Shown in pieces: positions 3,960-4,387 of a DNA stretch of 7,363 bases. Both the position numbers and the translations under genes were made by a program. Numbering within the stretch: the stretch's first letter is position 1; every line of letters begins with the position of its first letter. This DNA comes from a virus (Duplodnaviria > Heunggongvirae > Uroviricota > Caudoviricetes), in IMG/VR virus record IMGVR_UViG_2529292836_000012, positions 1 to 7,363 of that record; one strand, given 5' to 3'. Below the pieces are notes generated by a model, which made no database searches, was not told the origin of the DNA, and worked only from the letters and a program-made list of their open reading frames with translations.

Positions 3960-4142
3960 TCAGTTCTGCAGACACTGCCGAACACCGTCGACAATTTCAC
4001 AGACCTGAGGCGCGGTATCGAAAAGCTGGCGCGCCTTATCCAGGCTGACGCACCCCACCAATAAAAAAGGCACCAGTATCGCTACCAGTGCCCGTTTCAC
4101 CGCCGTTCGCGGCATTCTGTGTGTCCAGTGTTTTCGCGCCAT
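3960..4142 (-). CDS. small lipoprotein (60 aa precursor, about 30 aa mature)
   Basis: Basic n-region, hydrophobic core ALVAILVPFLL and lipobox L-V-G-C. The mature part CVSLDKARQLFDTAPQVCEIVDGVRQCLQN has three Cys. The start ATG lies 1 nt after the stop of the upstream 37-aa ORF (TGA-T-ATG), suggesting coupling. Confidence 0.5.
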   Translation of the reverse strand: MARKHWTHRMPRTAVKRALVAILVPFLLVGCVSLDKARQLFDTAPQVCEIVDGVRQCLQN

Positions 4143-4143
4143 A

Positions 4144-4257
4144 TCACCACCAACGCACAGCCCAAATCAGAACAGCGACCGCCACAAGGCGAATTGCAAA
4201 GGCCGCAGCCCTTGTCAAATCAAGGCTCGCGGGAGTTTCCATTTCAATACCTTTCAT
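4144..4257 (-). CDS. small membrane peptide (37 aa, C-terminal TMD), hypothetical
   Basis: MKGIEMETPASLDLTRAAAFAIRLVAVAVLIWAVRWW, with GAGG 9 nt upstream of the ATG at 4257 and an alternative ATG at 4242. It is below the ORF-track size cutoff and was found by manual translation. It is coupled to the downstream lipoprotein gene. Confidence 0.35.
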   Translation of the reverse strand: MKGIEMETPASLDLTRAAAFAIRLVAVAVLIWAVRWW

Positions 4258-4345
4258 AATGGACAACCTCAAAAAGAATCTTTTATACTTTCCCACGAGG
4301 ATTTTCTCCGTACTCACTAATCACAATTTCCCCTTTGACGTGAAA

Positions 4346-4387
4346 ACTAAAAACCCCGGACTGTTCCCCCAGCCGGGGTTTTGTTTT
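4346..4387. terminator. bidirectional rho-independent terminator immediately after the endolysin gene
   Basis: GC stem CCCCGG (4354-4359) / CCGGGG (4373-4378) flanked by an A-run (4347-4353) and a T-run (4379-4387). It reads as hairpin plus U-tract on both strands. Confidence 0.7.

Follow-up and report, generated by a model that had tools for sequence, protein, structure and literature searches.

How a phage lysis cassette might breach the outer membrane when neither Rz nor Rz1 follows its endolysin is the question raised by a 7,363-nt stretch of Caudoviricetes DNA (hereafter the window; positions 1 to 7,363 of IMG/VR record IMGVR_UViG_2529292836_000012). Along the minus strand, the cassette comprises a putative holin of the Phage_holin_8 family (5035..5427; Pfam 5.1e-23), a holin of the Phage_holin_3_7 family (4770..5045; Pfam 2.1e-21 and RefSeq annotation) and an M15-family endolysin of the L-alanyl-D-glutamate peptidase type (4390..4773, stop codon 4392-4390; Pfam Peptidase_M15_4 7.8e-13, PHROG 465 'endolysin' 1.3e-75 and RefSeq 'M15 family metallopeptidase'). 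These are followed by a terminator hairpin, the leader and gene of a 37-aa membrane peptide with a C-terminal anchor (4144..4257; PHROG 4493, 1.8e-16) and the gene of a 60-aa prolipoprotein (3960..4142; PHROG 7528, 7e-35), with which the cassette ends. Every element named in the original prediction was found at its position on this strand. The parent genome carries an IS66 element 36 nt past the large terminase gene.

The hairpin between endolysin and peptide gene (~4343..4387; AAAACCCCGG...CCGGGGTTTTT) is flanked by an A-run and a U-run and can therefore act as an intrinsic terminator in both directions. Its folding free energy of -23.1 kcal/mol (z = -4.7) was matched by 0 of 200 shuffles, and a terminator scan called it as well, in agreement with the bidirectional terminator originally proposed for this position. 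The same element is absent from 43 loci in which the lipoprotein gene abuts the endolysin, and it also occurs after other endolysins, by itself or with small peptides; it is part of an inserted peptide module. The conserved leader (4258..4296) carries a GAGG Shine-Dalgarno sequence (4270-4267) spaced 9 nt from the peptide ATG, and homology to the Stx phage GER2 begins at ~4296 (blastn boundary), that is, at this leader. A TATAAA stretch within it (4287-4282), noted earlier, is not supported as a promoter: the sense strand offers no usable -35 box and a promoter scan made no sigma-70 call there. On the opposite strand, a promoter-like site spans 4260-4289. A search of Rfam returned no match in the peptide/lipoprotein region and gave no support for a known small RNA.

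The two small genes meet at a TGA-t-ATG junction (TGA 4146-4144, t 4143, ATG 4142-4140), which places the lipoprotein ORF in the +1 frame relative to the peptide ORF; the last codons and stop of the latter overlap the ribosome-binding region of the former. Each ORF is under frame-specific purifying selection, which confirms both as real genes. For the peptide (MKGIEMETPASLDLTRAAAFAIRLVAVAVLIWAVRWW), dN/dS is 0.06 in frame versus 1.6 and 3.3 out of frame (10 alleles), falling to 0.016 over codons 1-13. For the lipoprotein, the in-frame value is 0.23 versus 0.93 and 1.32 in the other frames (40 alleles), with 0.17 for the mature part, 0.13 for codons 1-9 and 0.13-0.30 for the n-region of the signal peptide. 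An overlapping ORF in another frame across the lipoprotein gene was considered and rejected, dN/dS there being ~1. RefSeq starts the protein at Met10 (51 aa). Because codons 1-9 are constrained and Met10 is replaced by Ile, Val or Thr in many homologues, the correct start is that of the 60-aa form, as first chosen, and not that of RefSeq.

The predicted signal peptide (4142-4053) opens with a basic n-region of 17 residues (MARKHWTHRMPRTAVKR), followed by a hydrophobic core and the lipobox LVG↓C, whose Cys is encoded at 4052-4050. The mature part (4052-3963) has 30 residues (CVSLDKARQLFDTAPQVCEIVDGVRQCLQN). Throughout the family the +2 residue is Val, Ala, Thr, Gly, Ser or Glu and never Asp, so that the lipoprotein has the outer-membrane signals that define an o-spanin (a lipobox and no Lol-avoidance Asp at +2), and C48 and C57 supply periplasmic cysteines of the spanin type. 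C31, C48 and C57 are invariant across 36 aligned full-length homologues; among the 120 clusters listed, C48 or C57 is missing only in rare singletons. The single Pro of the mature part is peculiar to the window allele and is Ser in most others. The mature part is predicted to form an amphipathic helix (hydrophobic moment 0.43-0.53; 7 of 8 a/d heptad positions hydrophobic) of slightly acidic character (net charge about -1), and an AlphaFold2 model is all helix at low confidence (pLDDT 65). No hydrophobic segment occurs in the mature sequence, and with it the C-terminal transmembrane domain of a unimolecular spanin is missing. The gene is thus a real one, encoding a small predicted outer-membrane lipoprotein as the final product of the lysis cassette.

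By sequence, this lipoprotein has no membership in known Rz1 or o-spanin families. The only PHROG match to an 'Rz-like spanin' had E = 0.068 and covered signal-peptide residues alone, and the PHROGs that contain the two small proteins are families of unknown function. Searches of Pfam, NCBIfam, PADLOC and PDB sequences gave no family for either; the PADLOC defence models had no match to either at E <= 1, and no Pfam family, including Lysis_col and Entericidin, matched the lipoprotein at that threshold. An earlier idea of an entericidin-like or other lipoprotein module therefore survives as a functional analogy and fails as a statement of family membership. A profile search of 1.84 billion representative proteins recovered a narrow family of 25 representatives and no distant relative adjoining an i-spanin. 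The gene is present in 341 of 5,426 complete E. coli genomes, and its carriers include the Stx phages phiP27 and phiSTEC1575-Stx2k and prophages of enterotoxigenic E. coli such as strain H10407.

Directly 5' of the lipoprotein gene there is normally the M15 endolysin gene. In 43 of 84 loci with the window's endolysin, the lipoprotein ATG lies 18-21 nt after the endolysin stop, with neither peptide nor terminator between them; in 35 the peptide precedes the lipoprotein. At least 78 of the 84 have an intact lipoprotein gene, and a few loci (L077, L087 and L287) have frameshifted or truncated copies. It is the last lysis gene in at least five cassette types from several genera: it directly follows or overlaps GH108 endolysins in Salmonella, a Mu-like phage and Lelliottia, and in a metagenome phage it comes after a Phage_holin_3_1 and M15 cassette. 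This variety of genes upstream implies that its presence is independent of holin and endolysin type. Across five cassette types it is joined to the endolysin by an ATGA overlap or a gap of 4-21 nt, the terminator scan found no terminator 3' of it, and the 18-nt loci leave no room for a promoter of its own; the independent transcription and the homology to exclusion or resistance families that mark a moron are both lacking. A role as endolysin inhibitor was rejected, as the lipoprotein accompanies two unrelated endolysin families. A holin-profile scan for distant cassettes returned close relatives only (>= 93% identity).

The slot occupied by the lipoprotein is that of Rz/Rz1, as the original prediction had it. 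Two sets of loci (L082/L083 and L267/270/271) combine the same holins and endolysin with a canonical Rz and embedded Rz1 and have no lipoprotein, although such loci number only 2-5, the two samples overlapping. Yersinia cassettes with the same holin pair (L091-93) likewise have a canonical Rz. In GER2, where Rz/Rz1 are present, the lipoprotein copy has decayed and contains three in-frame stops. None of the loci examined had both the lipoprotein and Rz/Rz1 intact: the two are mutually exclusive, and the loci with Rz/Rz1 in this slot are rare recombinants.

A partner for the lipoprotein was sought in the window and beyond it. The earlier observation that no Rz-sized i-spanin ORF follows the endolysin was borne out twice: tblastn gave no match to Rz in the window, and between the endolysin and the small terminase subunit no minus-strand ORF combines an N-terminal membrane segment with a periplasmic domain. 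No type-II membrane ORF was found within ~4 kb of the lipoprotein in any lipoprotein-bearing locus; in 80 endolysin-anchored loci, the single credible type-II candidate was the Rz of L082/L083, both of which lack the lipoprotein. The complete genomes of phiP27 and phiSTEC1575-Stx2k, in which a canonical spanin might have been encoded elsewhere, lack any homologue of Rz, and in a lysis context neither has a further lipobox ORF of o-spanin type. A linked type-II protein with a periplasmic domain, the definition of an i-spanin, was thus found neither in the window, nor in the ~4-kb flanks, nor in the two complete genomes. By comparison, a published survey reports Rz in 277 of 279 Stx phages and a metallopeptidase endolysin in only two. 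Two other candidates were set aside. Either holin might have been an i-spanin in disguise, but Yersinia cassettes have both of these holins together with a canonical Rz. A downstream 130/147-aa gene has no membrane segment and is often absent.

Kongari et al. (2018) list the phiP27 orthologue as an o-spanin, in a singleton family, and assign it an i-spanin partner. The ORF of that partner is antisense to a 90-aa ORF and absent from most loci; in other loci the 90-aa ORF stays intact at 46% amino-acid identity whereas the 'i-spanin' frame gains stops. The published partner looks spurious. Combined periplasmic lengths in the catalogue of two-component spanins range from 62 to 300 residues (Kongari et al., 2018), and the minimum of 62 is that of the doubtful phiP27 pair itself. 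Here the mature lipoprotein provides 30 residues, or 46 together with the N-terminus of the peptide.

The 37-aa peptide has its best 17-residue hydropathy window (mean 2.45) at residues 18-34. Its membrane segment is C-terminal and no periplasmic domain follows, and it therefore falls outside the definition of an i-spanin. Relatives were sought with a 57-aa GTG-extended ORF, with the junction DNA pattern and with DNA searches; phage tblastn with the 37-aa peptide gave no match, probably owing to low-complexity masking. In GER2, E. coli E70 and Yersinia prophages, this peptide is found in front of canonical Rz with an identical ...CGTTGGTGGTGAtATG junction, and it also stands before Rz in loci L003, L008 and L091-93. 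Among 61 relevant IMG/VR matches, it is coupled to Rz in 46, against the remaining 15. The Qin prophage of E. coli K-12 has no small peptide between rrrQ and rzpQ, and we found no link to a named K-12 small protein. The idea that the two genes form a dedicated pair is not sustained by these counts: half of the lipoprotein loci do without the peptide, and the peptide is found more often before Rz. The peptide gene is best described as an independent, portable gene for a predicted membrane peptide that is not an i-spanin. The peptide, terminator and leader have been inserted between an endolysin and the outer-membrane gene that follows, with translational coupling to the latter, which in most phages is canonical Rz.

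Gene order suggests what the lipoprotein does. We see an even chance that it is a stand-alone outer-membrane lysis protein with no inner-membrane partner, the 37-aa peptide belonging to a separate portable gene. In the mechanism that we propose, the endolysin would first remove the peptidoglycan, and the lipoprotein would then perturb the outer membrane from its periplasmic face, most likely supplying the outer-membrane step of the cassette alone from the slot of Rz/Rz1. C48 and C57 would presumably be oxidised and give disulfide-linked oligomers. The nearest working models would be colicin lysis proteins, entericidin B and the phiKT disruptin rather than a periplasm-spanning fusion machine. 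Established phage disruptors of the outer membrane are two-component spanins, unimolecular spanins and disruptins. We suggest tentatively, at a little below even, that the present family is a fourth kind, a 30-residue, disulfide-bearing, amphipathic lipoprotein anchored in the outer membrane only, that would complete lysis with no inner-membrane partner, like a colicin lysis protein taken up into phage lysis cassettes; the peptide would be a general accessory or regulator, translationally coupled to whichever disruptor follows, Rz/Rz1 or the lipoprotein.

Several observations count against such a stand-alone protein. Lambda Rz1 is inactive alone, and we know of no phage precedent for a lone o-spanin-like protein. 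The net charge of -1 differs from that of the cationic disruptin, and there is no similarity to colicin lysis proteins or entericidins. Some 13-15% of phages that infect Gram-negative hosts lack a recognisable spanin; the present phages may be spanin-less too, and the lipoprotein may serve another purpose. The few Rz-bearing loci may owe their gene content to recombination breakpoints and not to functional replacement. The family is also narrow, and the AlphaFold2 model is of low confidence.

An unlikely, though by no means negligible, explanation is that the phages are spanin-less and the lipoprotein is prophage cargo unrelated to lysis, serving superinfection exclusion or surface modification in the manner of Cor, Llp or Bor and simply carried along at the end of the late lysis cluster. 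Such roles are known for small lipoproteins of prophages, lambda bor lies directly after Rz/Rz1, and T5 Llp has an intramolecular disulfide of a kind that the two conserved cysteines could also form. Moreover, ~13% of surveyed phages are spanin-less and 31 genomes have a lipoprotein with no linked i-spanin (Kongari et al., 2018). Cargo of this sort is hard to reconcile with a gene that in five cassette types directly adjoins or overlaps the endolysin and has neither its own promoter nor its own terminator, that never stands intact beside Rz/Rz1 and is decayed where they are present, that was never seen near tail-fibre or receptor-binding genes, and that has no homology to any family of that type. 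We regard it as improbable that the lipoprotein is a true o-spanin whose i-spanin is encoded elsewhere, comes from the host or is of an unconventional kind, such as a type I protein, an inner-membrane lipoprotein or the uncleaved precursor of the lipoprotein itself. Its filing as an o-spanin in the published catalogue, which explicitly allows for unconventional i-spanins and describes periplasmic Cys as typical of spanins (Kongari et al., 2018), speaks for this, and the strongly conserved, long basic n-region may point to a role for a precursor that stays in the membrane. The antisense position and patchy occurrence of the published partner weigh on the other side, as does the failure to find a type-II candidate in the flanks or in the two complete genomes. 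As the cassette moves among lambdoid, phiP27-like and Mu-like backbones, it would often lose a partner that is not linked to it. A chain of 30 residues is ~45 Å long in helical form and ~105 Å when fully extended, both short of a periplasm roughly 200 Å wide.

That the peptide in the inner membrane and the lipoprotein in the outer membrane form a minimal two-component spanin, the novel arrangement offered in the original prediction, now appears very unlikely. The TGA-t-ATG coupling is tight, one cluster (P0014) is a natural read-through fusion, and an i-spanin with its membrane segment at the C-terminus is conceivable in principle (Kongari et al., 2018). Set against these are the peptide-free lipoproteins of the 43 loci and of Salmonella, Citrobacter, Lelliottia and Mu-like loci, the more frequent coupling of the peptide to canonical Rz, and the lengths: at most 16 peptide residues lie outside the membrane, so that the total of 46 is below even the shortest catalogued pair. 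We attach hardly any weight to the last explanation, in which a defective prophage has a decayed end and the pair there is either a degenerate remnant or an artefact of gene calling, as the IS66 element and the frameshifted or truncated copies might suggest. The notion of a degenerate spanin is contradicted by the purifying selection on both ORFs, by the number of intact lipoprotein genes and by the occurrence of the gene in the complete phiP27 and phiSTEC1575-Stx2k genomes. PhiP27 was isolated as a converting phage.

A stand-alone lysis lipoprotein would have likenesses to several known systems. With lambda Rz1 and other o-spanins, the lipoprotein shares a precursor of ~60 aa, a lipobox, an outer-membrane sorting signal, the last cassette position and conserved periplasmic Cys. 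It differs in having no i-spanin partner and a gene neither embedded in nor overlapping another, in being predicted helical and not Pro-rich, in its mature part of only 30 residues, and in its lack of Rz1-family similarity. Like the lipoprotein, T1 gp11 is the product of a single gene in the spanin slot and has an N-terminal outer-membrane lipoprotein signal; gp11, however, has a C-terminal membrane segment and a beta-rich domain that spans the periplasm, whereas the lipoprotein ends 30 residues past its anchor. Colicin lysis proteins (bacteriocin release proteins; Cel, Kil, BRP) have precursors of ~47 aa and mature parts of ~28 aa, are Lol-sorted to the outer membrane, permeabilise it unaided through outer-membrane phospholipase A and are lethal when over-produced, and in the ColE7 operon a terminator stands just 5' of the lysis-protein gene. 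The lipoprotein is predicted to resemble them in size and lipidation signals, and its constrained n-region recalls their functional, stable signal peptides, which are themselves active. They lack its two extra Cys, its heptad helix and any sequence similarity, and they belong to colicin operons instead of phage lysis cassettes. Entericidin B (EcnB) of E. coli is also a very small, amphipathic, alpha-helical bacteriolytic lipoprotein, although it comes from a chromosomal stress locus with an antidote lipoprotein, its only Cys is the lipid-modified one, and the lipoprotein has no match to Pfam Entericidin. The 'disruptin' gp28 of phiKT is a cationic, antimicrobial-like peptide, neither secreted nor lipidated, and is to our knowledge the only experimentally shown alternative to spanins. 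It shares the amphipathic helix and differs from the lipoprotein, which has a lipoprotein signal peptide and a net charge of about -1. According to a preprint (bioRxiv 10.1101/515445), this single small amphipathic helical protein takes the place of the spanin in disrupting the outer membrane of the host of a spanin-less coliphage.

The locus bears on how spanin-less phages breach the outer membrane, and a gene of 60 codons that takes the place of Rz/Rz1 in cassettes identical in all other respects is a clean case, directly testable in E. coli. If the lipoprotein works alone, it would add to the range of proteins active on the outer membrane, which can serve as lysis tools or antibacterial leads, link phage lysis mechanistically to colicin release and correct a catalogued spanin pair. 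The question also touches toxin release from phiP27-type Stx2e prophages, because that release depends on lysis. The peptide family, for its part, is a widespread, strongly constrained and so far unstudied small gene adjoining spanin genes, and its product is probably a lysis accessory or regulator. Other tiny single-pass membrane proteins of lysis cassettes are LambdaSo Lcc6 (65 aa), which is strictly required for lysis and acts at the holin level, and the Mu gp25 releasin; unlike these, to which it has no homology, the 37-aa peptide adjoins an outer-membrane gene and not the holin.

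The window is part of an E. coli prophage (matched at 100% identity in NZ_CP115984), and its late region is similar to that of the Stx2e phage phiP27 (93% across the lysis genes). On the minus strand, a DNA methyltransferase gene is followed by three tRNA genes, Phage_holin_8, Phage_holin_3_7 and an M15 endolysin. Beyond the endolysin, the hairpin, the two small ORFs and the junction described in the original prediction are all present. The terminator hairpin (~4387-4343; -23.1 kcal/mol, z = -4.7) lies between an A-run and a U-run. The first ORF (4257-4144, minus strand), which has a GAGG Shine-Dalgarno sequence 9 nt upstream, encodes a 37-aa peptide with a C-terminal hydrophobic segment, and the second (4142-3960, minus strand) encodes a 60-aa lipoprotein with the lipobox LVG|C; a single base separates the peptide TGA from the lipoprotein ATG. 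A 130/147-aa gene of unassigned function and the small (DUF1441) and large terminase subunit genes follow. As had been proposed, no minus-strand ORF from endolysin to terminase is Rz-like or has the topology of an inner-membrane spanin (i-spanin). The TATAAA stretch has no fitting -35 box, and the promoter scan makes no call there.

Both small ORFs are genuine genes, because dN/dS is low only in their own frames: 0.23 versus 0.93 and 1.32 in the other two frames for the lipoprotein (40 alleles), and 0.06 versus 1.6 and 3.3 for the peptide (10 alleles), with 0.016 over peptide codons 1-13. RefSeq starts the lipoprotein at Met10 (WP_001735268.1; 51 aa, 3960-4115 versus 3960-4142). However, purifying selection acts on codons 1-9 (dN/dS 0.13), and many homologues have Ile, Val or Thr in place of Met10; the correct start is therefore the one that gives 60 aa. 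A sigma-70-like site lies antisense to the peptide leader (4260-4289, plus strand; TGGACA, 18 nt, TATACT; 10/12 matches), a region in which chance alone would give 0.5 such sites according to the scan. Together with the bidirectional terminator it could yield an antisense RNA of ~90 nt, the body of which is not conserved in phage GER2 and has no Rfam match.

By gene order across related phages, the lipoprotein is part of the lysis cassette and occupies the spanin slot. It directly follows the endolysin in the holin_8, holin_3_7 and M15 cassettes of E. coli and Citrobacter. With holin_8, holin_3_7 and a GH108 endolysin, it comes after an Ant-like insert with an ATGA overlap in Salmonella, and overlaps the endolysin itself by ATGA in a Mu-like phage. 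The overlap is 20 nt in Lelliottia, next to another holin and GH108, and a 4-nt gap precedes it in a metagenomic phage with Phage_holin_3_1 and M15. Rz is absent from every one of these loci. Conversely, the lipoprotein is missing from five loci, drawn from two overlapping samples, in which holins and endolysin are the same; these have canonical Rz/Rz1 together with an Ant-like gene and a small peptide. None of the loci examined has both lipoprotein and Rz/Rz1 intact: in GER2, a 933W-like Stx phage (MG710528), an unannotated, decayed lipoprotein copy with three in-frame stops (L008 3501-3668) lies ~750 nt downstream of intact Rz/Rz1. In loci with neither, damage is visible: the endolysin is truncated, an IS element or putative LT-II toxin genes have been inserted, or there is a frameshift.

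The lipoprotein family is uncharacterised and has been flagged once before, in our view with the wrong partner. Kongari et al. (2018) filed phiP27 as a 'separated' two-component spanin, the only member of its family, with a periplasmic length of 62 residues, the lowest in their set. Their outer-membrane spanin (o-spanin) is the 51-aa form of the lipoprotein, and for the i-spanin they took a 64-aa ORF that starts with TTG (NC_003356 20348-20542; L002 3580-3774). Opposite it, on the other strand, lies a 90-aa ORF with a full-length match to PHROG 36812. The 90-aa ORF is intact in other loci at 46% amino-acid identity, where the antisense frames hold stops, and most loci, like the window, lack the 64-aa ORF. 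The catalogued pair is thus most likely an artefact, which would leave the lipoprotein without a partner. The same catalogue notes a lipoprotein without any linked i-spanin in 31 genomes, a question its authors called open. The phiP27 RefSeq gene L32, which crosses the lipoprotein gene, has also been assigned the wrong frame.

The peptide behaves differently. It is absent from phiP27, which has the lipoprotein: homology with the window stops at the endolysin stop codon and restarts ~20 nt before Met10. Among 84 loci sampled by the window's endolysin (80 from IMG/VR), the lipoprotein ATG lies 18-21 nt past the endolysin stop in 43, without peptide or terminator; peptide then lipoprotein occurs in 35, where the spacers range from 251 to 603 nt, and a few hold other inserts. 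The same peptide, leader and ...CGTTGGTGGTGAtATG junction stand upstream of canonical Rz with embedded Rz1 in both GER2 and E. coli E70, and Yersinia prophages show the order holin_8, holin_3_7, GH108 endolysin, peptide, Rz. In an IMG/VR sample drawn by the junction sequence, the peptide preceded Rz in 46 loci and the lipoprotein in 15, and 18 were unrelated. The lambdoid cassette of E70 (L003 3005-3554) has four tandem small ORFs (50, 47, 49 and 28/57 aa) between the RrrQ lysozyme and Rz, all with C-terminal membrane segments, two of which share a PHROG superfamily with the 37-aa peptide. The peptide belongs to PHROG 4493; PHROGs 1115 and 3246 are related to it, and none of the three has an assigned function. 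Since it precedes canonical Rz and many lipoprotein loci lack it, the peptide is a portable module that couples to whichever outer-membrane gene comes next, rather than the lipoprotein's partner: a small gene of its own, widespread and unstudied. In one protein cluster (P0014; 89 aa, 6 contigs), loss of the peptide stop codon has produced a read-through fusion of a short peptide variant and the lipoprotein (...VRWWCMTRKHW...). In Cronobacter turicensis (L094 2161-2274), the 37-aa peptide gene lies past a Peptidase_S74 tail-fibre gene at a prophage end, outside any lysis cassette.

The lipoprotein family is narrow. It comprises 128 clusters, every one of them from Enterobacteriaceae and annotated as hypothetical, and a set of 1.84 billion proteins contained just 25 representatives. 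Its long basic n-region (MxRKHWTHRxPR) and lipobox are conserved, and the +2 residue is never Asp. The mature protein (26-36 residues) follows the pattern C-x-S-L-[DE]-K-A-R-x-[LW]-F-...-V-C-x(8,9)-C. It is amphipathic (hydrophobic moment 0.43-0.53, reached by only 2.7% of shuffles), with one heptad register holding 7/8 hydrophobic a/d positions, and AlphaFold2 predicts helix throughout at low confidence. At 30 residues, it is unable to span the periplasm.

The lipoprotein is o-spanin-like but stands alone. Our leading explanation, which we infer at about even probability, is a stand-alone lipoprotein that would be expressed late and anchored in the outer membrane, form disulfide-linked helical oligomers and destabilise that membrane from inside after peptidoglycan removal. 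Among working precedents the colicin lysis proteins come closest: they are lipoproteins of equal size, are Lol-sorted, have signal peptides active in themselves and permeabilise the outer membrane alone via phospholipase A; in ColE7 a terminator precedes the lysis gene. Entericidin B and the phiKT disruptin offer additional precedents. By sequence, the lipoprotein belongs to none of these families. Unrelated cargo in phages that lack spanins is unlikely, yet the strongest competitor; the recurrent position after diverse endolysins speaks for a lysis role.

A true o-spanin with an unrecognised partner is more doubtful still. The lipoprotein sits where an o-spanin would, but when the 80 endolysin-anchored loci were scanned generically for type-II membrane ORFs, the one credible candidate was Rz in L082/L083, two loci without the lipoprotein, and none lay within ~4 kb of the lipoprotein in any locus bearing it. 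In the complete phiP27 and phiSTEC1575-Stx2k genomes, neither an Rz homologue nor another spanin-like lipobox ORF is present. This agrees with a published Stx-phage survey, in which 277/279 phages had Rz and only two had the metallopeptidase endolysin. The original prediction was sound as observation and only partly supported as interpretation: its mini-spanin of peptide and lipoprotein, suggested by their tight coupling, is improbable, as the two are not a dedicated pair and the peptide, its membrane segment being C-terminal, does not fit the i-spanin definition. Least probable is a remnant or artefact; both small genes are constrained.

Several neighbouring features were observed. phiSTEC1575-Stx2k has a second lipoprotein ORF (138 aa; L299 15774-16190) just downstream of the Q antiterminator with no membrane protein adjoining, probably a cargo gene. 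In some relatives (L285/L286, 4797-5937), two toxin-like genes, which we take to be putative relatives of the heat-labile enterotoxin LT-II A and B subunits, stand straight after the GH108 endolysin in place of lipoprotein or Rz, followed by a truncated M15 fragment fused to a terminase gene. PP818812.1, 'Actinobacillus phage vB_Apl-pPE4', carries the same E. coli-type lysis cassette (~91% identity), which is odd for its stated host. The 130/147-aa gene (3393-3836, minus strand) encodes a conserved soluble product (PHROG 1935) with no match in Pfam or NCBIfam; it often follows the lipoprotein, and fragments of it occur after Rz in lambdoid cassettes. The three tRNA genes (5623-5869, minus strand; Arg, Arg and Ile in RefSeq) lie between the methyltransferase and the holins; phiP27 carries stx2e between the equivalent cluster and the holins, and the window prophage is a Stx-phage scaffold without toxin genes. 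An IS66-family element (tnpA, tnpB, transposase; L001 1-1280, overlapping window 1-179) starts 36 nt past the large terminase gene, so the prophage in the NZ_CP115984 strain may be interrupted or truncated.
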